A DNA stretch of 64,000 nucleotides from an uncultured Gammaproteobacteria bacterium (GCA_964538435.1 CAZIDX010000006.1:11923-75922); one strand, 5' to 3'. Counted from the stretch's first letter, positions 6,234-51,743 are shown. Numbers and translations are program-made. The notes: generated by a model from the letters alone, not told the origin.

Positions 6234-7379
6234 TCAGAGCTTTCTGATCTGTTCGAGCATCTTTTTCATTCTGTGCTCGAACGGGATGTTTTGCGGTGTG
6301 TTGGTGAACACCAGATACTCCCCAAAGTGATCACGTTTGATCACAGATTCGAGGCGAGCGACCTTTTGTCGAGCTGACCATTGCACTTTGAGTACGTCAG
6401 CGATCTGATCTGGGCGCAGGTGACGCTTGTGCAGGAACCGCCGCGCATCTTCATCCCCTTGGACACGAACCACGATGACGCGGTTGTTGACCAGACCCAT
6501 CATGTCCATCTCAACGAGCTGAGCCCACTCGAGAATCGCGACTCCGCGCAACCCCTTGAGCCTTGCTCGGAGCAGGCGCATGACATGTGGCTTGGTGATC
6601 TCTTCGAGCTGAGCGCGACGCTCGTCTGCCTGGGCTGAGCCAAACAGTCGTTGGCGCATGAGCGCTCGGTCAAGCACGTCATCCACGAGCACGTCCGCAC
6701 CCAGAAGCTCTGCGATGCGCTGCCTGGCCAACTTGGCGCCATGTGTCTGCTCGGCATAGAGATCGTGCACGAGCTTATCCACGTTGATGTGAGTGCCGCC
6801 CAGTTGCGAAGCTAGGCGCTCGGCCACGTAGCTCTTGCCAGTTGCGATGCCGCCAGTGATACCGATCAGGGTGAGGTTATGGATCCGCTGCTCGAGCGCA
6901 ACCTTGACGTGCAAGGGAACGAACTCAGACACATCGATCCCGATCTCTACAAAGCCTTTGACCTGGCTTGAGGAGACGTACTTGAGCTCCTGGCGGGCAG
7001 GGATGTACTCGACGCAGTCCCCATACCCCTGAAGGACCATGTTGTTGAGACCCTTCTGCTCTTCCTCGTAACCCTCATCGACATCGTTTCGCACGCCACG
7101 GAAGACCACATCGATCCCCAGACGCAGGAACTCGTCCACGAGCAGGCCGCTTGAGGAGATGACGAAGATACCAAACTCATCCTTGAGAGCTTCGGCAGCC
7201 ATATGCATGCGCTCATCGAGTGTGAACATGTAGCGACCGATCTTGGTCTCGCTGTTCATGATGACCACAAAGAGGGTCTTGCAGCGCGCCTTGGCCTTGC
7301 GGATCACATCGATATGACCGTTGGTGATGGGGTCGCCGCTGATGGGCACCATTCCTCTCTCGAACGTGAACGTGGGCAT
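6234..7379 (-). CDS. Bifunctional phosphopantetheine adenylyltransferase / dephospho-CoA kinase (CoaD-CoaE fusion)
   Basis: N-terminal PPAT signature ISGDPITNGHIDVIRKA. C-terminal half has the DPCK P-loop IGITGGIATGKSYVAERLA. Start set to ATG at 7379, preceded by GGGAGG. About 58% GC. Confidence 0.8.
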   Translation of the reverse strand: MPTFTFERGMVPISGDPITNGHIDVIRKAKARCKTLFVVIMNSETKIGRYMFTLDERMHMAAEALKDEFGIFVISSSGLLVDEFLRLGIDVVFRGVRNDVDEGYEEEQKGLNNMVLQGYGDCVEYIPARQELKYVSSSQVKGFVEIGIDVSEFVPLHVKVALEQRIHNLTLIGITGGIATGKSYVAERLASQLGGTHINVDKLVHDLYAEQTHGAKLARQRIAELLGADVLVDDVLDRALMRQRLFGSAQADERRAQLEEITKPHVMRLLRARLKGLRGVAILEWAQLVEMDMMGLVNNRVIVVRVQGDEDARRFLHKRHLRPDQIADVLKVQWSARQKVARLESVIKRDHFGEYLVFTNTPQNIPFEHRMKKMLEQIRKL

Positions 7380-7460
7380 TTCGCCTCCCAAGGTTTTGAG
7401 TTCACCAGATCGGGAGCATAGGCCAAAAAGACAGTTTTGTCAATAGAAATACTCCGGTTT

Positions 7461-8270
7461 TTAGCCGGAGTCGTTGAGGAGATCCTTCTGGGGAACACGA
7501 GGACTTCTCATGAGCGAGGGAAAACGCTCGGTGATGCGCAGTTGCTTCGCAATCTTCTGGTGGCTGATCGAGGCAACCTCACCCAAGATCTCTTTGTCGA
7601 CCTCGGCGACGATTGCGATCACCTGCTCGTACAGCGCTTTTGAGATCACATTGTTTGACTTGCATCCGCCGAGCATGACGGAGATAAAGTTGATACCTCC
7701 ATCTGTTCGCCTCTGGAGCGTGAGCTTGTGTGGGATACTTGCTGCCTTGTCCCAAACAAGAACAGGGGCATCCTCGATCTTTTGCTCGTCTTTGATCTCG
7801 AAGCTATGATCAAAATCGATGAAGAGCGGCTCGATGCGATGCGAGCTCCAAACCTTGCGCTTGAGGTAGTCGAGGAAGGCGAAGCGGAGCGCTTTACGCA
7901 CAAAGACATCGAGTTCTTCTTGGGTGGGAAAGCCTTCCATCACGCGGCGGAGGCCATCAACTTCCTGAAGGAGGTTTCTCTGAATGAATGCTACAGGCAC
8001 ACCCAAGGTTGGTGCGGGCGTCTCTTGCGCGTGCGAGACTTCGACTTGACCGCCCTCACCCACCTGGAAGAGGTACTCCCCTTCACCGAGCCCAGGCAGG
8101 AGTCCATTGTACATGAATCCGATGAGCCATCTCCACTGCTCGAGCTCCATGGGAGCCGAGCACTCGAAGTGCTGCTTGACCTGCTCTTCTTCGGTGTAGC
8201 AGGAGATACGAAACCAGAACTCGAGCTGGTCGACATCGAACGGAGGTCCGAAGTTCACGTCCTTGGACAT
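7461..8270 (-). CDS. Hypothetical protein, paralog family member A1 (269 aa)
   Basis: Paralog of 9433..10188. Shared blocks include FxVDQLEFWF, RFECSxPM, NGxLPGLGxGEY, ALRFAFLDYLxRxVWSxHRIEPLF and KLTLxRRxDGGIxxxSVMLxGCKS. Has its own promoter and terminator. Confidence 0.6.
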   Translation of the reverse strand: MSKDVNFGPPFDVDQLEFWFRISCYTEEEQVKQHFECSAPMELEQWRWLIGFMYNGLLPGLGEGEYLFQVGEGGQVEVSHAQETPAPTLGVPVAFIQRNLLQEVDGLRRVMEGFPTQEELDVFVRKALRFAFLDYLKRKVWSSHRIEPLFIDFDHSFEIKDEQKIEDAPVLVWDKAASIPHKLTLQRRTDGGINFISVMLGGCKSNNVISKALYEQVIAIVAEVDKEILGEVASISHQKIAKQLRITERFPSLMRSPRVPQKDLLNDSG

Positions 8271-8310
8271 GAATCACTTGATTCCTTTATGGCACTTGGT
8301 CGCTGCCGGG

Positions 8311-8327
8311 GCCATATCCGGGAATAA
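8311..8327 (-). promoter_or_regulatory. Conserved quasi-palindromic motif CCCGGATATGGCCCCGG just downstream of the A1 promoter (candidate operator)
   Basis: One of four near-identical copies, all about 45 nt upstream of the start codon of an A or B gene. Confidence 0.5.
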
Positions 8328-8349
8328 AACTTGCGATTCGTAGTTGTTT

Positions 8350-8425
8350 TTGTCAATTCCGACGCTTCGGTCGGAATGTATTGAAAAAGCCCGACTCTGG
8401 AGAGAGGGGCTGCGTTGAGCTTGAG
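8350..8425. repeat. Terminator-promoter module, family member 2, about 85% identical to the copy at 50839..50924
   Basis: GAAAAAGCCC-hairpin-GCGTTGAGCTTGA, plus a second hairpin CCGACCGAAGCGTCGG directly abutting TTGACA on the minus strand. Confidence 0.55.
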
Positions 8426-8431
8426 ATGAGG

Positions 8432-9298
8432 CTAGGGCTTCCCCCTGCCTTCTTCCTTGTTGAAGAGACGCTCGAGGATGTCTGCGGCCTGACCAACCCC
8501 TCCGTCAGGGAAGGCAAGCATGACCTCATCAGCCACGGTTGGACGCCGCTTCTTGATGTGAGCACTCAGCCGCTCTGCGGCGCACTCGGCCAGGAACGGG
8601 CTGAACCAGCCGCTTTGGATCTGCTTGCCAGGCCTGCGATAGGCGACCAGGACCGCACGATCCTTGCCAGAACCTTCCATATCGACCAGGAGCTGCCCGG
8701 TGCTGAACACATCTTGCATGCTTGTGCTGGGCGGCTGCCCTGGGCGGCCGAGCGAGAGGATACGCTCCACTGACACTGGCTTGACCGGGATCACTGGAAG
8801 CGGGGCGTGAGGAAGCTCGGGGTCAGCGTAGGTGATGCGCCCGCCACAGCTTTCTGCTGCTCGGTGCATGCACCAGACATCTGCGACTTGCTCGGCAATG
8901 CGCTTGAAGTTCTCTAGACTGGGGAATCGGATCAGGGACACTACGAGCTCGGTGTGGAGCCCCCGCATGCTCGGCTCGATCGCTTGCATGAAGGGATCTG
9001 CACCTCCTTCGGGCATGTTGCACTCGATCGGATCGAACTGGATCTCATCGGCGCGGACCGTGATACAGAACGTTCCCATGGGGTGTGGCGCCTTCAGGCG
9101 AGTGCGCAGAGCCTTGAAGTAGCTGTTCCAGTCCATCTCGTCGGAGATGGGTGGATTGCTCTCGACTGAGACGATCACTTCACCACCCGCACCAACGAGC
9201 GTCCCGATCTTGAGAACGATCTCAAGGCTGTTTGGGCACAGTGGCGGGGAAACGGTCTCGAAGTTGACATCTGTCGAAAGGAAGGTGCGCTTGGGCAT
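8432..9298 (-). CDS. Hypothetical protein, paralog family member B1 (288 aa)
   Basis: Paralog of 10314..11105 (shared TxESNPPxxDExDW block). The N-terminal DVNFETVSPP motif is shared with the A proteins. Start refined to ATG at 9298; the 5' leader is homologous to those of A1 and A2. Confidence 0.6.
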   Translation of the reverse strand: MPKRTFLSTDVNFETVSPPLCPNSLEIVLKIGTLVGAGGEVIVSVESNPPISDEMDWNSYFKALRTRLKAPHPMGTFCITVRADEIQFDPIECNMPEGGADPFMQAIEPSMRGLHTELVVSLIRFPSLENFKRIAEQVADVWCMHRAAESCGGRITYADPELPHAPLPVIPVKPVSVERILSLGRPGQPPSTSMQDVFSTGQLLVDMEGSGKDRAVLVAYRRPGKQIQSGWFSPFLAECAAERLSAHIKKRRPTVADEVMLAFPDGGVGQAADILERLFNKEEGRGKP

Positions 9299-9334
9299 CT
9301 TGTCTTCTGGCCTTTGTGACACTTGGAGGCTTTG

Positions 9335-9351
9335 CCGGGGTCACATCCGGG
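9335..9351 (-). promoter_or_regulatory. Motif copy CCCGGATGTGACCCCGG downstream of the B1 promoter (TTGACA-17-TAGATT)
   Basis: Same architecture as for A2: -35, 17-bp spacer, -10, 6 nt, then the motif. Confidence 0.5.
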
Positions 9352-9395
9352 TCGATCAATCTATCAAGAAGTCGGCTCTGTGTCAATTGAAAACT

Positions 9396-9416
9396 CCGGA
9401 GGTTAACCGGAGTCGT
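9396..9416 (-). terminator. A2 terminator hairpin (ctccggttaacctccggag + T-run) placed right before the B1 promoter
   Basis: Perfect 7-bp stem followed by TTTTC on the minus strand. Confidence 0.55.
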
Positions 9417-9432
9417 TGGGTCGTCTCATGAG

Positions 9433-10188
9433 CTAGAAGAGCTCTTGGATGATGCGTTGCTGGAGCTCGATCTTCTGCTGGCTGATTGAGGAAACCTCGC
9501 TGAGGGCGTTTTGCTCGAGTTGAGTGATGAGGGCTCGAATCTGCTCGCAGAGAACGGCCTGAATAACTTTTTTTGATTTGCAGCCGCTAAGCATGACCGA
9601 CACAATACTGATTCCACCATCCCTTCTGCGCCGGAGCGTCAACTTGCAGGAAGTGCTTACACCGACACCCCAGATCAAGTCTGGAGCGTGTCGAATTCTA
9701 TGATCGTCCTCGATTTCATGACTACTCTCAACATCAACGAACAACGGTTCGATGCGGTGCGGGGACCACACGCTGCGCTGCAGATAGTCAAGAAAAGCAA
9801 AGCGGAGAGCGTTTTGAACAAAACTCCTGAGATCATCTGCAGATGGGTAGTTTGCCGTTATGTTGCGAAGGTGTTCATCCTCGTAGTGGAGATGTCGCCG
9901 AATGAGACTAAGCGGATGACTCAACTTCGGTGCAGGCGTATCTTCATCATAGAAAATACGTGTCTGGCCCTTCTTGGGAATCCTGAGAGTGTATTCCCCG
10001 ACTCCAAGTCCGGGAAGATGCCCGTTGTAAATGGCTTCAATGAGCGCATTCCACTCATCAAGATCCATGGGGTACGAGCATTCGAATCGCTGCTCAAGCT
10101 TCCCCTCCTTCATATAGCCGATCACCTTGAACCAAAATTCGAGCTGATCAACATAGAATGGGAGACCGAATTTCTCGTTAGCAGACAT
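9433..10188 (-). CDS. Hypothetical protein, paralog family member A2 (251 aa)
   Basis: See A1. The N-terminal MSANEKFGLPFYVDQLEFWF block is conserved. Confidence 0.6.
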   Translation of the reverse strand: MSANEKFGLPFYVDQLEFWFKVIGYMKEGKLEQRFECSYPMDLDEWNALIEAIYNGHLPGLGVGEYTLRIPKKGQTRIFYDEDTPAPKLSHPLSLIRRHLHYEDEHLRNITANYPSADDLRSFVQNALRFAFLDYLQRSVWSPHRIEPLFVDVESSHEIEDDHRIRHAPDLIWGVGVSTSCKLTLRRRRDGGISIVSVMLSGCKSKKVIQAVLCEQIRALITQLEQNALSEVSSISQQKIELQQRIIQELF

Positions 10189-10223
10189 GAATCACGAAAA
10201 TCCTTTATGGCGCTTGGTCGACA

Positions 10224-10240
10224 CCGGGGCCATGTCCGGG
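10224..10240 (-). promoter_or_regulatory. Motif copy CCCGGACATGGCCCCGG downstream of the A2 promoter (TTGACA-17-TAGATT)
   Basis: Read directly from the sequence. Confidence 0.5.
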
Positions 10241-10268
10241 TCGATCAATCTATCAATGACCAGTGTAA

Positions 10269-10316
10269 TTGTCAATTGAAAAGCCCACCTCCGAGGAGGC
10301 GGGCGCGTTGGCCTTA
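10269..10316. repeat. Terminator-promoter module, family member 3, overlapping the B2 stop codon
   Basis: Hairpin gcccgcctcc/ggaggtgggc followed by TTTTC and AATTGACA in minus orientation. Confidence 0.55.
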
Positions 10317-11105
10317 GCGATGCTTGGACTGGCCGCGCAAGACGCTGAGGATCTGGTCGATGAGCCCTTGGTTCTTTTCGATCTCTCCCAACTCGATCTC
10401 GAGCAGGATGGGGAGTTGCTCGGTGACCAGAGTCTCGATCTGGCGCACGAGATGGGAAGCGACCCACTCGCGGTGGATGGACTTGGTCTGGATGGTGACC
10501 TGGATGGCGCTGGAGCCGTCTTCGCGGCGACGCAGAGCGAACAGGTAGGGTGTGGAGCGCAGGCGAAGCATGCCGACGTGGTCACACTCCTTGCTCTTGT
10601 GCAGGATTGTGCCGAAGCGCTCGCCATCGAACTCTGCTTCCACGCTCAGACGCATCCCTTCGTCGATGTTGCCATCACCCACCATGGCGGACTCGATGTG
10701 ATGTGAGACCGCGAGTCTGGCCAGGTGCTCCACGAGATCCATGAGATCCTCATGATCCGGGAAGTGGATCATCATGGAGACGAGCTTGTTGAAGTGCATG
10801 CGCATGAATGCACGGAACTGCATACGAACCTGCTCGCGACGCTCCTCCCCCAGCTCGAGAGGGAGATCCTCGATACTGAGACCACCAGACTCGGAGTAGG
10901 TGAAGTTGTAGAAGCCGCTTGGCAAGGGCTGCTCGGGCGTGTCGAACCTCTCGAACACCACAGTCCAGTCCAGCCCCTCATCGACAGGGGGGTTGGACTC
11001 TGTAGTTACCTTGAGCTCGCCTTCTTCTCCGCGCTGGAGGTTGAGACTGAGCTCGAGGGTGATCTTGCTGATACGGAGCGGGGCTCCGAACTTGACATCG
11101 CTCAT
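10314..11105 (-). CDS. Hypothetical protein, paralog family member B2 (263 aa)
   Basis: See B1. Start refined to ATG at 11105 (MSDVKFGAPL...), which is preceded by GGAGGA. The longer track ORF would overlap this ribosome-binding site. Confidence 0.6.
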   Translation of the reverse strand: MSDVKFGAPLRISKITLELSLNLQRGEEGELKVTTESNPPVDEGLDWTVVFERFDTPEQPLPSGFYNFTYSESGGLSIEDLPLELGEERREQVRMQFRAFMRMHFNKLVSMMIHFPDHEDLMDLVEHLARLAVSHHIESAMVGDGNIDEGMRLSVEAEFDGERFGTILHKSKECDHVGMLRLRSTPYLFALRRREDGSSAIQVTIQTKSIHREWVASHLVRQIETLVTEQLPILLEIELGEIEKNQGLIDQILSVLRGQSKHR

Positions 11106-11140
11106 CTTGAGCTTCCTCCGTGGCACGCATCTTGATTATT

Positions 11141-11156
11141 CCGGGGCCACATCCGG
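11141..11156 (-). promoter_or_regulatory. Motif copy CCGGATGTGGCCCCGG downstream of the B2 promoter (TTGACA-17-TATTCT)
   Basis: Read directly from the sequence. Confidence 0.5.
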
Positions 11157-11283
11157 CTGCAGGAGAATAGCTTGAATTGCACGCTGTGTCAAGGTAACGA
11201 TCTTGACAAAGCCGTGTATTTTTGGCAGATTTGGACCTTAAGCCCCTCTTGGGCTTGAGTTGAACTATAGGGGAGACTGACTG

Positions 11284-12753
11284 ATGGCAGACAAAAAGGA
11301 TCCAAAGGCCAAAACACCACCGGCCTCGATCCAGATGGCCGGTCACCCACCTCGAACACGCGGGTCTGGAGACGGTTCTGCGCCTCCTGAAGACCCTACC
11401 AATGTTCCGGAGTTTGACGACTTCCGCCCTAAGAAGCTGGAAGCTGACCTGAAAGATCAACAGCGCATGGTTGATCGGTGGCTACGCTCCTGCGAGCTCC
11501 CAAATCCTGTCAGTGTGCTTCCACCTGGGAGGAGTGCGGAAGACGTATGTAATGCGCTCGCCTACCTGTGCCCCAACTCCAGTGGACGTCACCAAGGCCT
11601 CGTCACTCGAGTCTTGCTCGGGGAGGCTGTGGATCCGGATGAGCTGGTGCATGCCATGGTCGAACTTGGCAGACAGGCTCGCGTGCGTGCGCTCAGGCTT
11701 CGCTCAGACGGATTCACTCCGGATGAGGATGATGTGGCTGCCATGACTCGCTTTTGGGAGAAGGTTCCGGAGATTTCTCCTCCTGAAGATGGATGGGTTT
11801 TCCGAAACTGGAACCATGCCTTTGATGCAGCCGCTCTTGCATTCCCGTACCTCATTGAGGAATATCGAGACATGCTCGGACAGCTCGCGTACGGACTGTA
11901 CGGTGGGCTGCAGAACCATGACTTCGCGGTCTTTCGAGATTTGGTTGATCAGATTCGCCTGACCAATCGCCTCAAGGAGGAGGACAAAGAGCGCGAAGAA
12001 ATGATCACGCTTACGGACGCTGACGATGCACCTGATGAAGAGGCAGTCGCGGCCACTGTGTCACTGGAGCTCGATGATCATGAGGAGACCACGCTCGAGC
12101 AGATCGATGTGGTGGACCCTGTATTCATCGACGATGACGAAGACCCGTTTGTCCACCCTGGAGACGAAGTCTGGTTCATTGATGATGAAGACGATACTGG
12201 AGATGTTGTCGAGCAGGCAGGTGATCGAGACGTCTCGCATGTCGAGTTCGTGCCTATCGAGGAGCAGGAGGCTCATGAGCCTGACGGACCGCGTTGGCTT
12301 ATTGGGGTGATTCTGCTCGTGGTCATACTCTGTGTGATCGCGCTTGCCTGGTGGAAGATGGGTGGGTTCCTGGACTTCTCCAGGCTCGTGCTCGAACACG
12401 AGAGCTACGACACACATACGCCTGATATGCTGGCTGAGCAGGAAGATGCTCCTGTAACAGAGATCGTGACACCTGAGCCTCAGAAGGTCGCCACGATCCC
12501 TCTTGCTTGCACCAACTATCAGATGCTGCACACACCCAACATGGGTCCGGCACCTGAGGGTTGCTACGTGGTTGGGTGCTCTCAGGGGTATCCTGCGCTG
12601 CGTAGCTATACTCCTGAGACGGGGTGGCTCGCGTGCACCAAGGATCAGGTGATTCCCAAGCGCGGGGATTGCTACTTGGTCGAAAACAAGGACAACTCTG
12701 TGCGATCTGTTGCCTTCCACGATGGCAGCTGGATCGATGAGGATTGCCTCTGA
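11284..12753 (+). CDS. Hypothetical single-pass membrane protein: acidic cytoplasmic N-domain and Cys-rich extracytoplasmic C-domain (489 aa)
   Basis: RBS GGGGAG precedes the start. One strongly hydrophobic helix (LIGVILLVVILCVIALAWW). A D/E-rich stretch. Six Cys in the C-terminal 90 aa. No recognisable catalytic motif. GC-rich. Confidence 0.55.
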   Translation: MADKKDPKAKTPPASIQMAGHPPRTRGSGDGSAPPEDPTNVPEFDDFRPKKLEADLKDQQRMVDRWLRSCELPNPVSVLPPGRSAEDVCNALAYLCPNSSGRHQGLVTRVLLGEAVDPDELVHAMVELGRQARVRALRLRSDGFTPDEDDVAAMTRFWEKVPEISPPEDGWVFRNWNHAFDAAALAFPYLIEEYRDMLGQLAYGLYGGLQNHDFAVFRDLVDQIRLTNRLKEEDKEREEMITLTDADDAPDEEAVAATVSLELDDHEETTLEQIDVVDPVFIDDDEDPFVHPGDEVWFIDDEDDTGDVVEQAGDRDVSHVEFVPIEEQEAHEPDGPRWLIGVILLVVILCVIALAWWKMGGFLDFSRLVLEHESYDTHTPDMLAEQEDAPVTEIVTPEPQKVATIPLACTNYQMLHTPNMGPAPEGCYVVGCSQGYPALRSYTPETGWLACTKDQVIPKRGDCYLVENKDNSVRSVAFHDGSWIDEDCL

Positions 12754-12756
12754 CGG

Positions 12757-12786
12757 CTCCGAGCCAGACTCGGGGCTTTTCTATTT
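12757..12786 (+). terminator. Rho-independent terminator of 11284..12753 (family-like, GGGGCTTTTCTATTTG)
   Basis: Stem ccgag/ctcgg followed by a T-run. Confidence 0.5.
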
Positions 12787-12834
12787 GATTTTGAAAATAA
12801 TCATTAATGCGTGTTCAGGGGGGTGTTCAGGGGG

Positions 12835-13015
12835 GGCCGGGTCGTTACTTGTAGCATGAAAAAATACCACTAATCACTTGAATTTATTTATGTTGACACC
12901 TCAAATGGAAATAAAAATCTTTCGTTCCGTATCTTGCCACAATCTTTTTTGCCTAAAAACAATGAGTTTTTAATTTTCTAATTTGTTTCTCCATGCTACA
13001 AGTAACGACCCGGCC
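12835..13015. repeat. MITE-like element: perfect 24-bp terminal inverted repeats (GGCCGGGTCGTTACTTGTAGCATG) flanking about 133 bp of AT-rich DNA
   Basis: The inverted repeats (IR) are at 12835-12858 and 12992-13015, extended by a G-run on the left and a C-run on the right. A tandem GTGTTCAGGGGGG x2 lies to the left. Sits 68 bp upstream of tRNA-Ala. Contains no ORF. Confidence 0.6.
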
Positions 13016-13042
13016 CCCTTCCGGCCCCCTTCTGTTGGAATC

Positions 13043-13071
13043 TTGAAAAAATATCGAAATCTGTGTATCCT
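13043..13071 (+). promoter_or_regulatory. Candidate tRNA-Ala promoter (TTGAAA-17-TATCCT)
   Basis: Spacing and sequence fit a sigma70 promoter 11 nt upstream of the tRNA. Confidence 0.4.
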
Positions 13072-13082
13072 TTTTGCGTTGT

Positions 13083-13159
<77 letters not shown>

Positions 13160-13170
13160 TGCAAATAAGA

Positions 13171-13195
13171 AACAACCGTTTTGGCGGTTGTTTTT
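13171..13195 (+). terminator. Terminator after tRNA-Ala
   Basis: aacaaccg-tttt-ggcggttg followed by TTTTT. Confidence 0.55.
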
Positions 13196-13277
13196 GGTTA
13201 TCCCCTTGACGGGAATCTGTTTTGTGAGCAAAGTCCGTAATTAAGGGAACGGCACCTTTTGGAGAAGGGCGGACCGG

Positions 13278-14444
13278 ATGGCGCAAAAGCCGGTTGTTGT
13301 TTACATCGAAGACACGCATGGCACCATGGGGCTTGGCAACTTCGAGCAAGAGGCACTTCGCGTGTTCCTGGAAAAGGATCGTGAATGCAATGTGCACTGC
13401 TACAGCGGTTTCTGGGGGTTCGAGGATGACCTCGACCAATTCAGGAAGTATGCAAAGCATGGACTCCTGGTCCTCGTGATTGTGGCGCAGGAAAAATACT
13501 CGGATGAGCAACACACAAGAGCACTGGAGACTGTTCGCCAACATCTTGGCAAGCAGATTCCAGTGGTTGTTATTCCTGACGGGTACAGGGATCGCTTCAA
13601 GGGCACGGATGATGCGTTCGTGTACGCACATGATCACACAGACCCTGAGTTCGCCGAGCTCATCGACGCAACCCTCAAGGCCTGGACACCTCCTGTGGAC
13701 TGGTTGGGTGCTGACACACCTGCTGATAGAGCCAGGCTCGGACGTCAGCTGCGTCGATCGTATCGCGCGAACCACCCGGATGATGAGCGTGCGGTCGCTG
13801 TGGGTGATCACAACCACATGACGGTTGCTCAGGCGCTGCGTATCCGTATGCTCCCTTCGGCGTGCCTGAAGTCCGAGTTCGAAGACTCGCTGGAGCGCAA
13901 GACTCGCAGGTTCGATTCTGCGGATTCTGGAGTGTACGAGTGCGAAGTCGAGATCGTTCGCTCTATGACTGACGAGGAGCGCACACGCTTTGATGAATCA
14001 CTCTCAATTGCGCGAGGACACATTTCTCAACGTGGGGGCGGCATCAAAGTTGCAAGCGTGAGCTGTGGCAGTGATGTCAATGGGTATGCGATTGATCCTG
14101 AAACCCTGGAGACACGTGTTACCTATGGTTTTGGTGAACATCACAAGGTCAAGAAGCTCCTGTCGTACCGTGTGCACAGGATCCTGGCGTGGCGCAAGAA
14201 AAAGCACTACTTTGACATGGAGGATGACGAAACCGATGACAGAGTCACTGAGGCGCGGATTCGCGCCCGCTTCCTCAATGGACTCATCTTCACCAAAATC
14301 CGCGGCTTTGAGACACCGATCGTTCAGCTTTGGACCAACTGCGCCAGCACGGAGCAGATCAACCGGGCCATCACGCATATTTTCCGTGAGCGTAAGTTCA
14401 TTCCAGTGGACTGCTACGGAAAACTCTACGAACCCTCTGCCTAA
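13278..14444 (+). CDS. Hypothetical protein (388 aa), GC-rich
   Basis: RBS GGAGAAGG precedes the start. No recognised domain. The minus-strand ORF 12996..13817 that overlaps it also overlaps the tRNA and is rejected. Confidence 0.55.
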   Translation: MAQKPVVVYIEDTHGTMGLGNFEQEALRVFLEKDRECNVHCYSGFWGFEDDLDQFRKYAKHGLLVLVIVAQEKYSDEQHTRALETVRQHLGKQIPVVVIPDGYRDRFKGTDDAFVYAHDHTDPEFAELIDATLKAWTPPVDWLGADTPADRARLGRQLRRSYRANHPDDERAVAVGDHNHMTVAQALRIRMLPSACLKSEFEDSLERKTRRFDSADSGVYECEVEIVRSMTDEERTRFDESLSIARGHISQRGGGIKVASVSCGSDVNGYAIDPETLETRVTYGFGEHHKVKKLLSYRVHRILAWRKKKHYFDMEDDETDDRVTEARIRARFLNGLIFTKIRGFETPIVQLWTNCASTEQINRAITHIFRERKFIPVDCYGKLYEPSA

Positions 14445-17467: not shown

Positions 17468-20400
17468 TTAAGATGGCTCCTCGGCTGTTGCGCCGCCGTC
17501 ATCTGTTTGTGGGGGATCGACCTCGTCTAGCTCCGGGCTCTCCGGAGATGCTGGTTCTTCCTGTGCTACAGGCTCAGGCTCGAGAGCTGGCTCTTCTTCT
17601 TGAGCAACAACCTCTTCAACCGGCTCTTCTTGTGGTGGTGCTTCTTCCTCTACAGGTTCTTGGGTTGGTTCTGGATCCTCAACAACTTCTTCAATTGGCT
17701 CTTCAACAATTGGTTCTGGCTCTGGATCCACTGGAGTTGGCTCTGGCTGATCTGCGATCACCTCAGGCTCAACAGGTTCAAATCCCTTTCGGTAGGCTGT
17801 CACCATCCAGTCAAACTCGATGTCGCTTGCACCACCAAAGCTCTTCACAATGAAGTGGTTCTGGTCTTTTTCTGATACGTAGAGTGAGGTTGGTCCGTTT
17901 GGTGTGGCAACAACTCTGATCGGTGCAATTGCAGAGATAACATCGTTATACTCTGGAGCCACGTTTTCAAATCTGACATGTGCCTCTCCGTTTACAAGCG
18001 TTGCTGTTCCCGAGAGCGTAATGATTGCCTCAGGTGAGGTTACTGCGATGGTTTCTACTTTTTCGTTTAAGTGAGAAGTGATCACATTCTTCACAACTGA
18101 CTCTGTCTTGATCGTTCCGTTTGAATCAATTGACCAGAACTCTCCCATTCCTGAAATGTGTCCGATTGAGAAGATTGAATGTGTATTCATTGAAATGTTT
18201 CCACTCATATTGAGTGCAACATAATTTGTGGTTTGTCCTTCTGCGAACCCTGATGCTGCATTGTTTGTTCCTGGAGCTGGGAGTGAACCTGAACCTCCCC
18301 AGTACCCAACGTTTACGTAGGTGAGAACCAGGTTATCATTTTCAGATCCAGTGTATGGCTCAAGCGCGTAACCAACTACAGGCCCGGCTTCCTTTGCTTT
18401 CATTGCCACACCTGGAATTGATGAACTTGTAAGTGGGTCTCCCACGTTCACTGCGCCGTTTTCTAGGTTTACGCGTGTTGGCACGCGTCCGGCAAGTGCA
18501 ATTGGGTAGTTGCCTTCAATATTCTCACCAGCTAGGAACCCTGGCCTTGTTGAGACAATACCTGCTAGGGCATTTGCTGTTGCTGCATCTGATCGCTGCA
18601 CGTACTCTCCGTTTCCTGAGAACATTACGATGTCTCCTGGCTCAAGCTCTTGGCTCGACGGGAACATCTCAGCAAAGTCGTATGAGCCTGTAGACCAACC
18701 CTTTGCGTTTGTGCGCATGAAGTCTCCTGCAGGACCAGATGAACCATCATAATAAATGTACTTGTCTGTCTGAGGTGTTCCACGGTCTGATGGGTAGATG
18801 TTTCCACCCGCAACTATATGATTTGCAATTCGCATGGTTCCCTCATTTGTGATGTAGGCGACCTCTGTGTCTGTTGCATCAGTAATTGAGAGGCGATAGT
18901 TATCCTCGTCTTCAACTACGTTTTGCATCATCATCTCAACAACCTCTGCTTCGGATCCATTCCATGCAGATCCGCGGAATGCGAGACCGTAGGAATCAAA
19001 TGATTCTTCGCTTGCTGTTGCCTCACCTACTGGCGAGATGACCACATTATCTGTCACAAGCGTTGATTCGCCATCTGTTCCAATTATGTCTCCCATGTAC
19101 CAACTATTGTTCACCTGGACCATGACGGTTCCAGAGACATCATCAAAATCCGTGAGCGCCATACCAATCACACGCCCAACCTTGGTTGCCTTCATGGCAT
19201 GCCCAGGAGTAGACGAGGTGGTGAGGTAGTCACCAACTTCGATAGAGCCGTTTTCATTTGTCACCTTCACTGGGACACGCCCAACCAAGGCAACCGGCAT
19301 TGGGTTGTCTTCTTCTTCAATGTTGTACCCAGCTGATGTGAAGTCTCCGTAGTTGTCTGAGACGATTCCTACGATTGGTCCAGTGTATGGCTCAGATGAT
19401 TTGACCATCTTTGCAATCACATCACCGTCCATTGTTGTTACGCTTTCTGTTCCTGGCACGACGATGTCACCATACTCAACACCTTCTTCTACTGGGTATT
19501 GCTCAGCATAGTCAGCTGTTGGAGCTCCAGTACAGTCAAGAAGTGTTGTGTCGTTGGTAACACCAGTTGTGTGACAAACCGCTTCAGTTGCACCAGATGT
19601 TGGGAGGTCAACCACCACATTTCCCTCTACATCAAACGTTCCTGTCATGGTTAGTGAAGCTCCACTTGTTCGCTGCAGTGTGATTGTGTTGTCAGCGTAG
19701 AGTCTGATTTCGTCGTCGGCAGAGAGACCAACGTCTCCTCCATTAAGACCCAGCGTTGGAGCCGTTCCTCCAGATACAGCTGAAATATTTCCTTCTGCAC
19801 CAGCTCCTGTTTTTGATCCCGCTGTCAAAGAAACGCTTCCTCCGGCATTTGCTCCAGTCCCTTGAGCGTCACCTGCAACCACAGACACACCTCCACCAGC
19901 ACCACCATTTCCAGCAGCAAGCCCGTCTCGACCAGTAATATCAACTCCTCCGCCCTGTCGAGCTACTGCTCCGTTTCCTGTTGGTAATCCTCCAAGAAGA
20001 GAAACTTTACCGCCGTCTCCTCCAGTTGTTTGAGAAGCACCTGCTCCTCCAGTAATTGTTGCAGTTCCACCACCGTTTCCTGCACCATCACCTGTCCCTG
20101 CTGTGACAACCACATCACGACCGACGGCGGCAGATGCAGCACCTGCCACAATGTTGAGATGGCTCGCTGCAAATGAACCCAATTCATTTACATTGATTCT
20201 TCCGTACGCCCCCTTGTCATCAATAGACATTAATGGGTTTGCCCCTGAGGAAGAATCTGCAAATGTAATTGTTCCTGTATCTTCGATGGTGATGTTTGCG
20301 GTTGTGTCTTTAAATGCAATCTCACTGTCCCAGCCAGACCCAAAGTTCAGACCAAATGAGTTAATTGTTCCGGCCCCGGATTCCGTGAGCCCACCGATAT

Positions 20401-23400
20401 CAATACCATAGGCTGTATCTGTTCCAGTTGTGTTTGAGAATGTCATTCCCGCAGCACCAATGTTTACTGCCCTGAATGCCGTATCTGTGCCTGTTCCTGC
20501 TACACCTGGAACAATGTGAAGGGCATTTACACTGGCATCGCCACCTACATACGTTAGGTCGATTCCATCAACACCTGCTGTTGCGGTTGGGTTTGCATTG
20601 TTGGTCAGGGTAAGCATGTTACCTGCTGTCATTGCAGCAGATGTATTGAGTTGAACTTGTGAATTTGCATCAATATCAAACACAACATGCCCAGCTCCAC
20701 CTGCTTGGAGCACTAGATTCTCACCAGCAGCAGAGGTGATATCAATGTCTGTGTCTGCGGCACTATCAAAACTGAGAGCTGTGTTGGCGTCTACAAACAC
20801 TGTGTGATTGACACCTGTGGTTGAACCAAAATTCACACTTCCGTTATCTGACACAGTGAATGCTGCAGCACCTGAATCCTGAACAACAAAGTCTCCTGTT
20901 GATTGCAGGTTGATAAGTGTATTTCCGGATGAATTGTTAACAATCGAGAACACCTCAGCGCTGTCTGCGGTAATGCTGGTAGAGGCGTCCATGATCATTG
21001 CGTCTTGGAACTGTGCAAAGTCAAGGCAGTCAATACAGGAGATCGATCCACCTGTGATCGTTCCGGCAATGTCAAGGTTTCCGTCGGCTTCAATTGCATC
21101 TGCTACGTAGAGGTCACCCGCTCCGGTTGCGACTCCTGGTGTGTTTGGTGTGGCATCGTTGTCCACGAACATTGGTGAGCCGTAGAAGTAACCTGAGTAG
21201 TTATTTGTTCCACCTGAGGCTGTTCCAGCAACTCCGTATCGGTTTGTTCCGTCGCCAATGTTTTGGAAGAATCCTCCAAAACCGTTTGTGATATTTCCAC
21301 TTCCAACATCGATCGTACCTTCAACACCAAAAGCGTTGGTGATTGTTCCACCTGAGACTGTTGAGTCAACAACACCTCGGACACCTGCGACACTTGGCGC
21401 GGTTTGAGAATTTGACATGTACCTTCCAAGACCATAAACACCTGTAACCTCTGCTGGTCCAGCAGCCGTGTTGTTGCTAAATGGTGTGATGCCAGCCAGA
21501 CCACGCGCTCGGTATGTGCTTGCTGATTGATCAACTTCGGTATTTAGCTGGAAGTAACCGCCGTAATGATTTGTGTTTGCGCCGATGGATCCACTTGGAC
21601 TAGCACCTGCATCAATCACTGTTGCTCCTGAGGTCCCAGAGATGTCAGTGAGGCTCTTAAAGTACCCAACTTTAAGCCCTCCACCATCCATGTCGTAGTA
21701 GTCTCCAGTGTTAAAGGTGATGGTTCCTGTTTCTCCGTTTGATGCATACATATCGATCGATGCACTTGTTGTAGCTGCATCACCGATTCGAATCTTGTTT
21801 GCTGACTCGTCAACTGAGAATGCAGAGACCAAAGTTGCTGCATTACCCACTGAGAAGTCATCACCTGTGTTTGTTGCAACAATTCCAGAAGATGATTCAA
21901 GTGTGAGGGCTCCACCAGATGCAGACCCAATTGTCAGTGCTCCTACACCTTGAATCACATCGTCGTTGACTGTAAGTGTTCCACTTGAATCAAGAGTGAG
22001 CGCATCTGCGCCATCACCAATCGTTGTTGCTTGATCAAACGTCAAATTACCTCCATCAATATCTAGAAGGAGATCTGCTGTCGTTTGAATTTCTCCGTCC
22101 ATGTAATTGGTGGAGAACGCGCCGGCTGTGAATCCGATATCTGAGAAGACTTCACCGTCTGCTTCGATGCGGAAGACATTGTTTCCTGCTCCACCATAGT
22201 CTGTTTGGATGTTTACAATGTCTGCTGTCTCAGTCGTCTCTGTGACGTCAATTGAGAGAGCGAGCCCTGTGTCGTCTGTGAAGTTTCCTCCGAGAAGGTT
22301 GAGGATTGTTCCTGTAGTAGTTGTGGCGCCATCTAGACTGAATACAGATTGTGAGGTTGACTCTGAATCGATGCTTAGCGCTGTCCCGTTTCCATCTTGA
22401 TCGATTGTCACTCCGATTCCTGTACCTGTGTTTAGGTGACGCACCAAATCCTCAGTGTACAAACCATAGTCCCAGGCTGTGCCTGTTTGGTATAGGGCGT
22501 ATTCCTTTCCATCTGCCTGATTTGCACCTCCGAGGTTGTTGATCAGAATTCCGTAAATGTCATCATCTGTTCCGGCATCAGTTGCGTTGTTTGTTACGTT
22601 GATATCGAGCGCTCTTCGAACATCAGCAGCTCCATCGTCGGCATACTGAGAGAAGACAGAGGTGATTGTCGTTGCTGATGCATTTCCAGCGTTCGTTGTT
22701 GCTGAGGTGTAATCAATATCAACCATTGGCACTGTTCCTGTGGCAGTGTTGTTTTGAATCCACATGATTTCACTTCCTCCAAGCTGGTGGAAGGTCTCAT
22801 CATTAAACGTAACACCTCCTGCTAAGTAGATGTCTTGGTAGGCTGCGCTGCTGTCTGTTGTGATAAACAACTGATCCACTGAGGAACCACCGAGCGTGGC
22901 GCTTGTTCCTGTTGAACCAAGAAGGAGCTGGCCTCCTGCAACGGGATCGATGTCAATGTTTCCCGTTGAAGTGATGTTACCTCCGTTGAGCGCTAAGTCT
23001 CCTGCTGTTGTAATGTTTCCGGTTGCTGGAGCAACTGAGTAATTTGCTCCCCCAACTGTAAGCGCAGCACCTGTGATATCGAGTCCGTTTGTTGCATCAA
23101 GATTTCCATCAAATGTTGCTTGTCCGGTTGAACCGAAGTTTAGCTGTCCTGTTCCTGAGGTTGAGAGGTTGTATGCCCCGAGATTGATGCTTGTAGAAGC
23201 ATCGAGAGCGAGCGTGTCTGAGAAACTGTCGAAGTCGAGGCAGTCTGTGCAGGAGATTCCTGACAGATTTGCTGTGCCGTTGACTGTTAGGTCTCCTGTG
23301 ATGGTCAAATCACCTGTTGTCCCAGCGTCTGCAAGTGTCATCAAGGTGTTTGTTCCATCATTGAACGCAATAGACCCTCCGCCAGCTACTTGAATATTTG

Positions 23401-25006
23401 TTGTTGTGTCATCAAGTAAAAGATTTGCATCCCATCCACTTCCAATCCTAAGTCCTGTTTCTGTCACTGTCCCATCAGGGCTTGTTAGGTTTGCGATATT
23501 TATTCCTCGAAGTGTGTCTGGGTCACCTGTGGCTGCTGATGTCACGTTCACATCTAGCGCTGACACTGTGTCTGTGTTTGAGTTGTTGCCAAGCGTGAAG
23601 GCAAGGTTCTGACCATTTGCTTCTGAGGAAGTTGTTGTTAGTGAAAACGTATTCGTTGATGCGCTTGAATTTGTAATGGAGAGATTCTCAGATCCAGCGA
23701 GACTTAGATCTACATCAGTGTTGAAGGTTGCGGCACCGTCAAACTGAGCGGTACTAGAAGCAACCAATGCCCCATTTATGGACACTTGACCTGTCCCGGT
23801 TGAGAGCGTTCCTGATCCGGTTTGTGAGAAACTTCCATCCATTGTGATCCCACCAATTCCAGTGAGGTCACCAGTTGCGGAAATATCCCAATCTGAGGAA
23901 TTAACAGAAAGAACATTGGAACCACCACCAATGACTGTTGTTTGCCCGAACGTCAAATCTCCGCCTGCAATCGTAAGAAGCAGATCTGTCGTTCCGGTTG
24001 AGGTGATGGTTCCGTTTCCATAGGTTGTTCCACTACCGACCGTGAGACCACCGTCGGTGTAGATCACACCTTCTACACCAGCATCACCAGCAACGAAGAG
24101 ATCGTCGCCCCCGAGAGTGAAGCTTGAGTGTGCAAGTGTTTCTGTAGATGAGGTCGATGCTCCGACTACAACATCGGTAGCAAAGAAACTATCTGCAAGC
24201 ACTTCGAGTTCGTCAGCGATACTGAGGTCTCCGACGCTTTCTGTTGCGTATGTTAGAGCCCCGTTTGCACCAATACGTACAGCATAATCATCTTCAAAGA
24301 CACGAGTGCTCACTTCCCATTCACTGCTTGTGATATCGGAAGTGAATGCAACTGTCCCTGATCCATCTTGGAATGTGATTGTGTTTGCACCTGATGGATC
24401 TGTAATTGCGAACGTTGTTGTGTTCCCGTCGTTAGATGCACCTTCAAACACAATTGGAGATGCGCCAGTAAGTTCTGCGCCGGTGAGGTTGTAGTCTCCA
24501 GTACCTGTGTCGCCAGTTGCTGAGAGGAATCCTGTGGAGTCGATTCCGTCTAGTCTTTGGGCGTTAAGGGCATATGGAGCAGAAGTGAGTTGTTTTCGTG
24601 GGGAAAGCGTTTCACTTCCGATTACAACCTCAAGGAACATGCTGGTGTTATCACCAAACACAGAATCCGCGATAGCTGCATATGAATCACCGGTGTCACC
24701 CAGGTTTTCTGTGTAGAGACCTGAGGTGAGCGTGATGCTCTTTGCAACAACTGAAGCTGGGGTATTTGTGTGACAATCGGCCGAATCATTTGACCAGACA
24801 CAGGTTCCCCCTGTCAGCGCGTCGTAGAGCATGAACTTCATGCTTAATGATGTATCCGATACAGGAACACCGTTTGAGTTGAGAACACGCCCTTGATATG
24901 TGAGGATGTTCGGAGGTGCGGCCGCATGAGCAACCCCAACAATCATCAACATCAATGATGCGATGAGTGTGGCTGCTATGCGCTTGTATCCCCGAACGTG
25001 ATACAT
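17468..25006 (-). CDS. Giant secreted surface protein (2512 aa): signal peptide, long G/T/S/N/D-rich beta-repeat region, two SC(T/I)DCLDF Cys motifs, acidic Pro/Glu-rich C-terminal tail
   Basis: N-terminal signal peptide ...VGVAHA/AAPP. Low-complexity repeats typical of beta-helix or adhesin-like proteins. Last gene of a four-gene operon. Confidence 0.8.
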   Translation of the reverse strand: MYHVRGYKRIAATLIASLMLMIVGVAHAAAPPNILTYQGRVLNSNGVPVSDTSLSMKFMLYDALTGGTCVWSNDSADCHTNTPASVVAKSITLTSGLYTENLGDTGDSYAAIADSVFGDNTSMFLEVVIGSETLSPRKQLTSAPYALNAQRLDGIDSTGFLSATGDTGTGDYNLTGAELTGASPIVFEGASNDGNTTTFAITDPSGANTITFQDGSGTVAFTSDITSSEWEVSTRVFEDDYAVRIGANGALTYATESVGDLSIADELEVLADSFFATDVVVGASTSSTETLAHSSFTLGGDDLFVAGDAGVEGVIYTDGGLTVGSGTTYGNGTITSTGTTDLLLTIAGGDLTFGQTTVIGGGSNVLSVNSSDWDISATGDLTGIGGITMDGSFSQTGSGTLSTGTGQVSINGALVASSTAQFDGAATFNTDVDLSLAGSENLSITNSSASTNTFSLTTTSSEANGQNLAFTLGNNSNTDTVSALDVNVTSAATGDPDTLRGINIANLTSPDGTVTETGLRIGSGWDANLLLDDTTTNIQVAGGGSIAFNDGTNTLMTLADAGTTGDLTITGDLTVNGTANLSGISCTDCLDFDSFSDTLALDASTSINLGAYNLSTSGTGQLNFGSTGQATFDGNLDATNGLDITGAALTVGGANYSVAPATGNITTAGDLALNGGNITSTGNIDIDPVAGGQLLLGSTGTSATLGGSSVDQLFITTDSSAAYQDIYLAGGVTFNDETFHQLGGSEIMWIQNNTATGTVPMVDIDYTSATTNAGNASATTITSVFSQYADDGAADVRRALDINVTNNATDAGTDDDIYGILINNLGGANQADGKEYALYQTGTAWDYGLYTEDLVRHLNTGTGIGVTIDQDGNGTALSIDSESTSQSVFSLDGATTTTGTILNLLGGNFTDDTGLALSIDVTETTETADIVNIQTDYGGAGNNVFRIEADGEVFSDIGFTAGAFSTNYMDGEIQTTADLLLDIDGGNLTFDQATTIGDGADALTLDSSGTLTVNDDVIQGVGALTIGSASGGALTLESSSGIVATNTGDDFSVGNAATLVSAFSVDESANKIRIGDAATTSASIDMYASNGETGTITFNTGDYYDMDGGGLKVGYFKSLTDISGTSGATVIDAGASPSGSIGANTNHYGGYFQLNTEVDQSASTYRARGLAGITPFSNNTAAGPAEVTGVYGLGRYMSNSQTAPSVAGVRGVVDSTVSGGTITNAFGVEGTIDVGSGNITNGFGGFFQNIGDGTNRYGVAGTASGGTNNYSGYFYGSPMFVDNDATPNTPGVATGAGDLYVADAIEADGNLDIAGTITGGSISCIDCLDFAQFQDAMIMDASTSITADSAEVFSIVNNSSGNTLINLQSTGDFVVQDSGAAAFTVSDNGSVNFGSTTGVNHTVFVDANTALSFDSAADTDIDITSAAGENLVLQAGGAGHVVFDIDANSQVQLNTSAAMTAGNMLTLTNNANPTATAGVDGIDLTYVGGDASVNALHIVPGVAGTGTDTAFRAVNIGAAGMTFSNTTGTDTAYGIDIGGLTESGAGTINSFGLNFGSGWDSEIAFKDTTANITIEDTGTITFADSSSGANPLMSIDDKGAYGRINVNELGSFAASHLNIVAGAASAAVGRDVVVTAGTGDGAGNGGGTATITGGAGASQTTGGDGGKVSLLGGLPTGNGAVARQGGGVDITGRDGLAAGNGGAGGGVSVVAGDAQGTGANAGGSVSLTAGSKTGAGAEGNISAVSGGTAPTLGLNGGDVGLSADDEIRLYADNTITLQRTSGASLTMTGTFDVEGNVVVDLPTSGATEAVCHTTGVTNDTTLLDCTGAPTADYAEQYPVEEGVEYGDIVVPGTESVTTMDGDVIAKMVKSSEPYTGPIVGIVSDNYGDFTSAGYNIEEEDNPMPVALVGRVPVKVTNENGSIEVGDYLTTSSTPGHAMKATKVGRVIGMALTDFDDVSGTVMVQVNNSWYMGDIIGTDGESTLVTDNVVISPVGEATASEESFDSYGLAFRGSAWNGSEAEVVEMMMQNVVEDEDNYRLSITDATDTEVAYITNEGTMRIANHIVAGGNIYPSDRGTPQTDKYIYYDGSSGPAGDFMRTNAKGWSTGSYDFAEMFPSSQELEPGDIVMFSGNGEYVQRSDAATANALAGIVSTRPGFLAGENIEGNYPIALAGRVPTRVNLENGAVNVGDPLTSSSIPGVAMKAKEAGPVVGYALEPYTGSENDNLVLTYVNVGYWGGSGSLPAPGTNNAASGFAEGQTTNYVALNMSGNISMNTHSIFSIGHISGMGEFWSIDSNGTIKTESVVKNVITSHLNEKVETIAVTSPEAIITLSGTATLVNGEAHVRFENVAPEYNDVISAIAPIRVVATPNGPTSLYVSEKDQNHFIVKSFGGASDIEFDWMVTAYRKGFEPVEPEVIADQPEPTPVDPEPEPIVEEPIEEVVEDPEPTQEPVEEEAPPQEEPVEEVVAQEEEPALEPEPVAQEEPASPESPELDEVDPPQTDDGGATAEEPS

Positions 25007-51667: not shown

Positions 51668-51743
51668 TGGTAGCCCGAGCAGGACTCGAACCTGCAACCT
51701 TGAGTTTAGAACACTCCTGCTCTTCCAGTTGAGCTATCGGGCC
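51668..51743 (-). tRNA. tRNA-Arg (anticodon TCT), CCA encoded
   Basis: Cloverleaf with D-stem GCUC/GAGC, anticodon loop GUUCUAA and T-arm GCAGG-UUCGAGU-CCUGC. There is a G27:A43 mismatch. Confidence 0.8.

Follow-up and report, generated by a model that had tools for sequence, protein, structure and literature searches.

A candidate leader pseudoknot RNA shared by four tandem paralogs of an orphan protein family in an uncultured gammaproteobacterium

In a 64,000-nucleotide (nt) stretch of DNA from an uncultured Gammaproteobacteria bacterium (GCA_964538435.1 CAZIDX010000006.1:11923-75922; referred to here as the window, with 1-based coordinates that apply to the whole 64 kb), four paralogous genes, A1, B1, A2, and B2, lie in tandem between positions 7440 and 11290, and a copy of the same short, partly palindromic motif is found at about the predicted transcription start of each of them. 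The locus raises the question of what this motif does and what kind of proteins are made under it. A preliminary description of the sequence had taken the motif for an operator shared by the four promoters. The observation behind that proposal is real and lies beyond chance, and both the gene family and the architecture of its transcription units are confirmed; the motif itself, however, is probably the 5'-terminal hairpin of a leader pseudoknot RNA that serves the paralogs as a shared control element, rather than an operator.

The leader element and its predicted fold

All four open reading frames (ORFs) were found on the minus strand with the sizes first reported: B2 (10314-11105, 263 amino acids [aa]), whose ATG at 11105 has the Shine-Dalgarno (SD) sequence GGAGGA 8 nt upstream; A2 (9433-10188, 251 aa); B1 (8432-9298, 288 aa, ATG at 9298); and A1 (7461-8270, 269 aa). 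The motif CCGGAYRTGRCCCCGG has exactly four matches in the 64 kb when up to two mismatches are allowed, all of them upstream of array genes, where 0.07 matches would be expected and none of 100 shuffles reached four. Its copies sit 36 to 37 nt upstream of the four start codons and begin 6 to 7 nt past the -10 hexamer in every leader, i.e., at about +1 as judged from -10 geometry. Within the 16-nt motif, 13 positions are invariant, and the leader alignment shows conservation beyond the 16-mer, reaching the CCAAGYGYCAYAAAGG segment beside the SD, so that a conserved leader of about 50 nt is common to all four copies. The earlier proposals of a conserved element at about +1 of all four genes, implying common control, and of homologous 5' leaders both stand on this evidence.

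The outer CCGG/CCGG of the motif can form a 4-bp stem (S1) around an 8-nt loop, and RNAalifold, applied to the four leaders, pairs motif positions 6 to 11 (URUGRC) with a GYCAYR segment just 5' of the SD (S2). In the B2 leader (11106-11156, minus strand, like the three that follow), S1 joins CCGG at 11156-11153 to CCGG at 11144-11141, and S2 joins UGUGGC at 11151-11146 to GCCACG at 11124-11119, with the SD at 11118-11113. The A2 leader (10189-10239) has S1 at 10239-10236/10227-10224 and S2 as (C)AUGGC 10234-10229/GCCAU(A) 10211-10206; the B1 leader (9299-9350) has S1 at 9350-9347/9338-9335 and S2 as UGUGAC 9345-9340/GUCACA 9320-9315; and the A1 leader (8271-8321) has S1 at 8321-8318/8309-8306 and S2 as UAUGGC 8316-8311/GCCAUA 8293-8288. 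Two pairs of S2 are compensated among these leaders, one of which distinguishes the two gene types (G-C for B, A-U for A), while the other has gone from G-C to A-U in B1 alone. With S1 of 4 bp, a first loop (L1) of 1 nt, S2 of 6 bp, a second loop (L2) of 1 nt, and a third loop (L3) of 12 to 16 nt, the window leaders have the layout of an H-type pseudoknot, and the GYCAYR arm ends 0 to 6 nt ahead of the SD. Each helix is predicted to be stable by itself (S1, -3.7 to -9.7 kcal/mol; S2, -4.2 to -7.6 kcal/mol).

In the A-type leaders, the GGA of the SD also pairs with a GAUUC that immediately precedes the AUG, forming an extra small hairpin (8271-8290 and 10189-10208, minus strand) that may explain their unusually long SD-AUG spacing of 12 nt.

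The same element was found in a second genome, on the Logan contig L002, which comes from a distantly related organism and carries the family member P0009. The P0009 leader reads TTTACA-17-TAATCT, 7 nt, CUGG-UU-UGUGGC-A-CCAG, 16 nt, GCCACA-UCGAGG, AUG; its loop arm and pre-SD complement equal those of the window, and its hairpin has a compensated C-G to U-A pair. The leader of the gene that precedes P0009 reads TTGACA-17-TATCTT, 8 nt, CUGGUCA-UAAGUGGC-UGACCAG, 26 nt, GCCACU, GGAG, GUG, with a 7-bp S1, an 8-nt loop, and an S2 that carries a U-A to A-U swap. The promoter spacers, L3, and proteins of L002 have all diverged from those of the window, while the leader element has been kept. Across the six leaders, L1 is 1 to 2 nt, L2 is 0 to 1 nt, and L3 is 12 to 26 nt long, lengths that we take to be sterically compatible with both predicted helices.

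Both proposed helices are complementary in all six leaders of the two genomes, with compensatory changes. In a hand-made, N-padded alignment of the four window leaders and the two L002 leaders, 98.4% of cells were paired and 4 of the 13 pairs had changed on both sides; the covariation score was reached by 0 of 500 shuffles, and slid controls gave 21 to 44% pairing with 0 compensated pairs. The pairing expected of an H-type pseudoknot, with loop-to-3' complementarity kept through compensation, is therefore seen, on a hand alignment and in two genomes. A motif-shaped pattern (a CYGG...CCRG stem whose loop holds RUGRC, with the complement of this arm farther downstream) matched only these six leaders, against 0.23 matches expected per 64 kb. 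A sequence-agnostic structural pattern, run over both strands of 156 kb, gave nine matches, four at family leaders and five that do not precede family genes. The pattern CCGGAYRTGRCCCCGG-N8-22-GYCAYRRRGG gave five matches, none before a family-like ORF, and these were treated as chance; they lie in GC-rich DNA, at least one of them inside an aminotransferase-like ORF.

In Rfam searches, only tRNAs reached the gathering score in the window, and nothing at an E value of ≤10 overlapped the leaders when positions 7380-11300 were searched. The motif strings had no match in the literature, and a covariance model of the four window leaders detected no additional copies across the 64 kb.

A number of observations weigh against the pseudoknot. 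The leaders are only six and come from two genomes, and one of the two L002 genes (the first, preceding P0009) is only weakly family-like. Taken alone, the four window leaders give no significant covariation (they are matched by 68 of 500 column shuffles; slid-partner controls are 24 to 50% paired), and fitting the six-leader alignment to the structure by hand inflates the proportion of paired cells. One covarying pair divides A from B leaders just as the gene phylogeny does and may reflect a single event. Whole-leader folding energies are no better than those of shuffles (z, -0.06 to -0.34; +0.28 for B1), and the covariance model from the four window leaders failed to retrieve the L002 leaders. 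The transcription start is a prediction from the -10 position, and CCGG/CCGG, besides being able to pair as RNA, is palindromic as DNA. Distant family members on L003 and L004 have 5' hairpins but lack this element. Finally, all four proteins are mildly acidic (isoelectric point [pI], 5.2 to 6.2), which makes direct autoregulation by RNA binding less attractive.

Transcription units and the function of the leader

Between 6 and 14 kb, the top four sigma70-like sites are those that precede B2, A2, B1, and coaDE, the gene downstream of the array; each scores 10/12 with TTGACA, 17 nt, and a -10 hexamer that matches at 4/6 positions. Those of the array genes are TTGACA-17-TATTCT for B2 (11164-11192, minus strand) and a TG-extended TTGACA-17-TAGATT for both A2 (10247-10275, minus strand) and B1 (9358-9386, minus strand). 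A1 has a putative promoter at 8328-8356 (minus strand), read off the sequence and absent from the sigma70 scan output, in which TTGACA (8356-8351) is followed after 17 nt by a weak -10, CAAGTT (8333-8328). The proposal that each gene has its own sigma70-like promoter thus holds at near-consensus level for B2, A2, and B1, but the A1 -10 falls short of it. As first described, a hairpin terminator follows each gene: a hairpin plus T-run is found at 10283-10304 for B2 (-21.2 kcal/mol), at 9393-9413 for A2 (-12.7 kcal/mol), at 8388-8411 for B1 (-13.0 kcal/mol, with an imperfect stem), and at 7451-7471 for A1 (-11.4 kcal/mol, with the stop codon in the loop and the coaDE promoter next), all on the minus strand. 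Their free energies, -11.4 to -21.2 kcal/mol, lie at z scores of -3.3 to -4.1 relative to shuffles. The terminator T-run leads directly into the next -35, and that of B2 shares positions with the A2 -35. Four independent transcription units, as the preliminary description had it, are a reasonable reading of these sigma70 sites (the -35 only for A1) and terminators.

Two further features were seen at the ends of these units. The final ~18 codons and terminator of A1 (7448-7518) have their homologous counterpart in the 3' untranslated region (UTR) and terminator of A2 (9390-9436), so that either A2 has gained an earlier stop or A1 reads through. A small hairpin, TTCCGAC-cgaagc-GTCGGAA (8351-8373, minus strand), abuts the -35 (TTGACA) of the A1 promoter. 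On a related contig of a metagenome-assembled genome, a comparable hairpin, CCCGAC...GTCGGG, abuts TTGACA upstream of coaDE (L016, 60-90), and another lies downstream of coaDE and upstream of ychF (L016, 1336-1370); these hairpins may represent a lineage-specific promoter-proximal module.

If the motif were a DNA operator, a dimeric repressor bound to the +1 quasi-palindrome would occlude RNA polymerase and co-regulate the four promoters. The motif does overlap the predicted start site of each promoter and has a terminal 4-bp inverted repeat, as LacI/TetR-type +1 operators would; its 13 of 16 invariant positions would suit a protein-binding site, and because both CCGG...CCGG and CTGG...CCAG are palindromic, a dimer site would also keep that symmetric change. 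However, palindromy is confined to the outer 4 bp, and the variable positions inside them covary with a site that lies 12 to 26 nt farther downstream than the motif rather than with their own mirror positions. CYGG and CCRG are separated by 8 to 9 nt in five of the leaders but by 14 nt in that of the first L002 gene, so that the inverted repeat lacks the fixed half-site spacing of a dimeric-repressor operator (8, 9, or 14 nt). The S1 stem is 4 bp in some copies and 7 bp in another, the spacing of the S2 arms ranges from 17 to 33 nt with complementarity nonetheless kept, and one U-G pair would be tolerable only in sense-strand RNA. Nor is a transcription factor gene adjacent, the neighbors being without a Pfam or NCBIfam regulator match. 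The variable stem and spacings, the covariation with a distant downstream segment, and the sense-only U-G pair therefore point to an RNA structure rather than a fixed operator, and the idea of an operator for one DNA-binding protein, which we consider unlikely, is not borne out.

The similarity of the leaders could also be without dedicated function, left by recent tandem duplication or gene conversion, with fortuitous complementarity. The A2 and B1 upstream regions do share an identical 22-nt run that includes the -10 (TTGATAGATTGATCGACCCGGA) and could reflect conversion, and the folding energies of the whole leaders are unremarkable. Yet the adjoining coding sequences have fallen to 19 to 50% aa identity while the 16-mer keeps its 13 invariant positions, the substitutions that did occur in the leaders are compensated, and the element recurs in another genome despite diverged promoter spacers, L3, and proteins. 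We regard such a by-product as very improbable.

The preferred reading is that the leader RNA acts after transcription as the common control element of the paralogs. The motif would then be the 5'-terminal hairpin of the mRNA, with S1 starting about 7 nt past the -10, a placement that follows from promoter geometry. Six nucleotides of the 8-nt S1 loop would pair with GYCAYR to give a compact H-type pseudoknot or, possibly, two alternative helices, and the pseudoknot would fold the entire 5' UTR up to the ribosome-binding site. So folded, the leader could protect the 5' end from 5'-end-dependent decay and stabilize the mRNA, and it could set the access of ribosomes to the SD or let a trans-acting factor set it. 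Among the roles that the leader might have, a passive stabilizer or translation-tuning structure for highly expressed genes is a tentative choice, a binding site for a protein regulator is a more doubtful one, and a ligand-sensing riboswitch would be decidedly unlikely. The strongly conserved sequences of the S2 arms hint at sequence-specific recognition or, alternatively, at slow drift of short helices.

Known RNA and operator systems offer partial parallels. The leaders of rpsO (S15) and the alpha operon (S4) of Escherichia coli and of T4 gene 32 are autoregulatory pseudoknots of bacterial and phage mRNAs. The array leaders resemble them in having a 5' UTR H-type pseudoknot, here a predicted one, whose 3' helix arm abuts the ribosome-binding site, and in that the element travels with the gene it would control. 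They differ in showing no sequence or Rfam similarity to those leaders and in leaving the SD itself outside the helix, and the array proteins are acidic and without a nucleic acid-binding signature. With the preQ1-I, SAM-II, fluoride, and guanidine-III riboswitches they have in common a size of about 35 to 50 nt and a hairpin loop that pairs with an SD-adjacent 3' tail. Unlike in these small pseudoknot riboswitches, the unpaired nucleotides of L1, L2, and L3 change from the window to L002, and L3 ranges from 12 to 26 nt; with its unpaired positions so variable, the leader is unlikely to have a conserved ligand pocket. The genes downstream of the six leaders are likewise not metabolic or transport genes, as they would be for riboswitches, but members of an uncharacterized family.

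The 5' stabilizer stem-loops of E. coli ompA and Bacillus subtilis aprE and ermC offer a third parallel, since there too a GC-rich hairpin lies only a few nucleotides from the (here predicted) 5' end, and the strong promoters and terminators of the array suggest abundant, stable monocistronic mRNAs. In contrast to simple stabilizers, the array leaders have a loop whose sequence is conserved and paired downstream, neither of which a stabilizer needs.

A lineage-restricted protein family

A1 and A2 align from end to end with 50% identity (E = 3e-92), in agreement with the preliminary description. Full-length alignment had also been claimed for the B pair and is overstated, as the match between B1 and B2 is confined to ~146 aa at the N terminus (25% identity; E = 3e-11). 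Between the A and B types, identity is only about 19%, and BLASTP gives a weak match (E = 0.003 over 235 collinear residues), but profile-profile alignment with hhalign relates them at 95.6% probability (E = 1.1e-8) over 136 N-terminal columns, and the AlphaFold2 models of A1 and B2 have an identical order of secondary-structure elements. A C-terminal block (L-R-R-R-x-D-G) said to be shared by all four is present in A1, A2, and B2 and is not recognizable in B1. The view that all four belong to one diverged family without a recognizable domain nevertheless stands, given the hhalign match and the absence of a match in the family libraries: the four proteins gave nothing below an E value of 0.01 against Pfam, NCBIfam, PHROGs, PADLOC, and the sequences of the PDB.

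Relatives are few. An exhaustive hidden Markov model (HMM) search of 1.84 billion representative proteins recovered six further relatives of 240 to 282 aa besides the window copies, P0006, P0007, P0008, and P0009 among them (B2 itself scores 271 bits with the family HMM); four giant proteins with SprB repeats (35 to 42 bits) were judged to be beta-repeat noise. In a word-indexed homology search, A1 matched only itself and A2, and a 10-member profile gave only four proteins. Neither the A-type proteins nor coaDE had a relative among the GTDB species-representative genomes, and B1 patterns, scanned against JGI metagenome contigs, had no match.

The AlphaFold2 models of A1 (mean predicted local distance difference test [pLDDT], 79.8; predicted template modeling score [pTM], 0.74) and B2 (pLDDT, 79.6; pTM, 0.74) consist of a beta-hairpin, a helix, a second beta-hairpin, two long helices, a four-stranded beta region, and a C-terminal helix of 44 to 51 residues, through which the proteins may possibly oligomerize. 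Foldseek searches with these models returned nothing at an E value of ≤1e-3 from the PDB or BFVD. In the ten-member alignment, W46, G64, P85, and P115 are invariant and L107 and G191 nearly so, but no polar residue is invariant. An enzyme is therefore unlikely, and the conservation pattern suggests that the proteins are most likely nonenzymatic, e.g., structural or binding proteins. None of the four is markedly hydrophobic overall (grand average of hydropathy, -0.16 to -0.35). These results show a lineage-restricted family of proteins of about 260 aa, soluble and with an alpha/beta fold by prediction, that has no detectable relative of known function. In being a small family without a known domain that was amplified in tandem in one lineage, it resembles the orphan paralog arrays of domain-of-unknown-function type; unlike those, it is absent from Pfam and NCBIfam, and its predicted fold has no PDB neighbor. 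Like the RNA element, the proteins are probably new.

Locus context and significance

The surroundings are those of an ordinary bacterial chromosome (efp, an epmA-like gene, ssb, rpsF, ychF, coaDE, polA, holA, nifS, and pnp). The array lies upstream of ychF and of coaDE (6234-7379, minus strand), a coaD-coaE fusion that joins phosphopantetheine adenylyltransferase to dephospho-CoA kinase, as it does on related contigs. On a JGI metagenome contig, P0006, a 66% identical ortholog of B1, stands in tandem with P0008 and P0007 in the order partial ORF, B, B', A, and 340-aa partial ORF, the last occupying the position that coaDE has in the window. On L002, P0009 is directly upstream of ychF, syntenic with the window, and the 358-aa product of the gene that precedes it, missed by the family HMM, is linked to the family by hhalign (E = 0.0023) and by a BLASTP match to the C-terminal block of P0009 (E = 1e-4). 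More distant coaDE orthologs (41 to 49% identity), some from groundwater metagenomes, have no family genes alongside. Taken together, these contigs show that tandem duplication has amplified the family at one chromosomal position, upstream of coaDE-ychF, in uncultured bacteria.

The coaDE fusion itself has few orthologs, several of them on groundwater metagenome contigs; the NCBI copy is annotated as a truncated protein of 322 aa, and the Logan copy has 381 aa.

The conserved position bears on the suggestion, made with the first reading of the sequence, that the array is a defense-associated, immunity-like, or phage-derived cassette in a GC-rich island next to a tRNA. In that case, an island acquired horizontally at tRNA-Ala would carry immunity-like or anti-phage proteins. 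The paralogs are indeed tandem and diversified, a tRNA lies about 2 kb away, a 33-nt inverted repeat stands between the array's neighbor and that tRNA, and GC content at third codon positions is raised in the array genes (0.58 to 0.79, versus 0.45 to 0.54 in nearby housekeeping genes). The raised values are, however, shared with coaDE (0.72) and with two genes on the other side, orf489 and orf388 (0.60 and 0.62; the whole tract spans 6234-14444), and tRNA-Ala is 1.96 kb off, beyond another gene. Scanning of the ORFs between 3.6 and 17.2 kb, which include coaDE, orf489, orf388, and a gene for a TPR protein, revealed no integrase, transposase, or toxin; the array is not bordered by long direct repeats, and the position of the family by the coaDE/ychF locus is kept in two other genomes. 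The four proteins have no PADLOC or PHROG match, no homolog in phage, plasmid, or IMG/VR collections, and no structural match in BFVD; orf489 and orf388 are also without a PADLOC match, and the other neighbors are housekeeping genes. The immediate neighbors are coaDE and a 489-aa, putative membrane protein without a Pfam match rather than a toxin, and typical immunity proteins are smaller than about 260 aa, whereas these have 251 to 288 aa. The cassette proposal is thus unsupported, and we consider it extremely improbable.

Several other features of the region were recorded. The L002 family genes look GC-richer by eye than the adjacent ychF. The product of orf489 (11284-12753, plus strand), a very acidic protein (pI 4.3) of a divergently transcribed gene, without a family match and unrelated to the array proteins, has by eye one hydrophobic, membrane-like segment (about residues 335 to 358) and a Cys-rich C-terminal part. 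The arms of the 33-nt inverted repeat (12832-12864 and 12986-13018, 94% complementary) flank a 121-nt AT-rich core between the orf489 terminator and the tRNA-Ala promoter, and the structure could be a miniature inverted-repeat transposable element or a long-stem noncoding RNA. Farther away, a gene for an XerC/XerD-like tyrosine recombinase (51785-52711, minus strand), unrelated to the array, lies beside tRNA-Arg(TCT) (51668-51743, minus strand), possibly marking an integration hotspot. Two adjacent giant ORFs (17468-25006 and 25010-28474, both minus strand) encode very acidic proteins (pI 4.1), one of 2,512 aa without a Pfam domain and one of 1,154 aa with fn3 and CarboxypepD_reg-like domains.

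Overall, the sequence evidence makes the leader a candidate for a new cis-regulatory RNA that accompanies an orphan protein family. Should it indeed act as RNA, it would be an undescribed leader motif of about 45 nt without an Rfam family, and its six natural variants with compensatory changes are easily tested in reporter systems. The case also carries a caution for sequence-only reading, as a conserved quasi-palindrome at +1 need not be an operator. We speculate, while considering it rather doubtful, that the leader represents a new class of cis-regulatory pseudoknot RNA for a new-fold family in a groundwater-associated lineage, in which the paralogs would build an abundant hetero-oligomeric structure and post-transcriptional feedback on the pseudoknot would hold their stoichiometry. 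In any case, the array marks a protein family, and probably a fold, without a relative of known function, one apparently important enough in an unsampled lineage to be kept in several strongly expressed, separately terminated copies.

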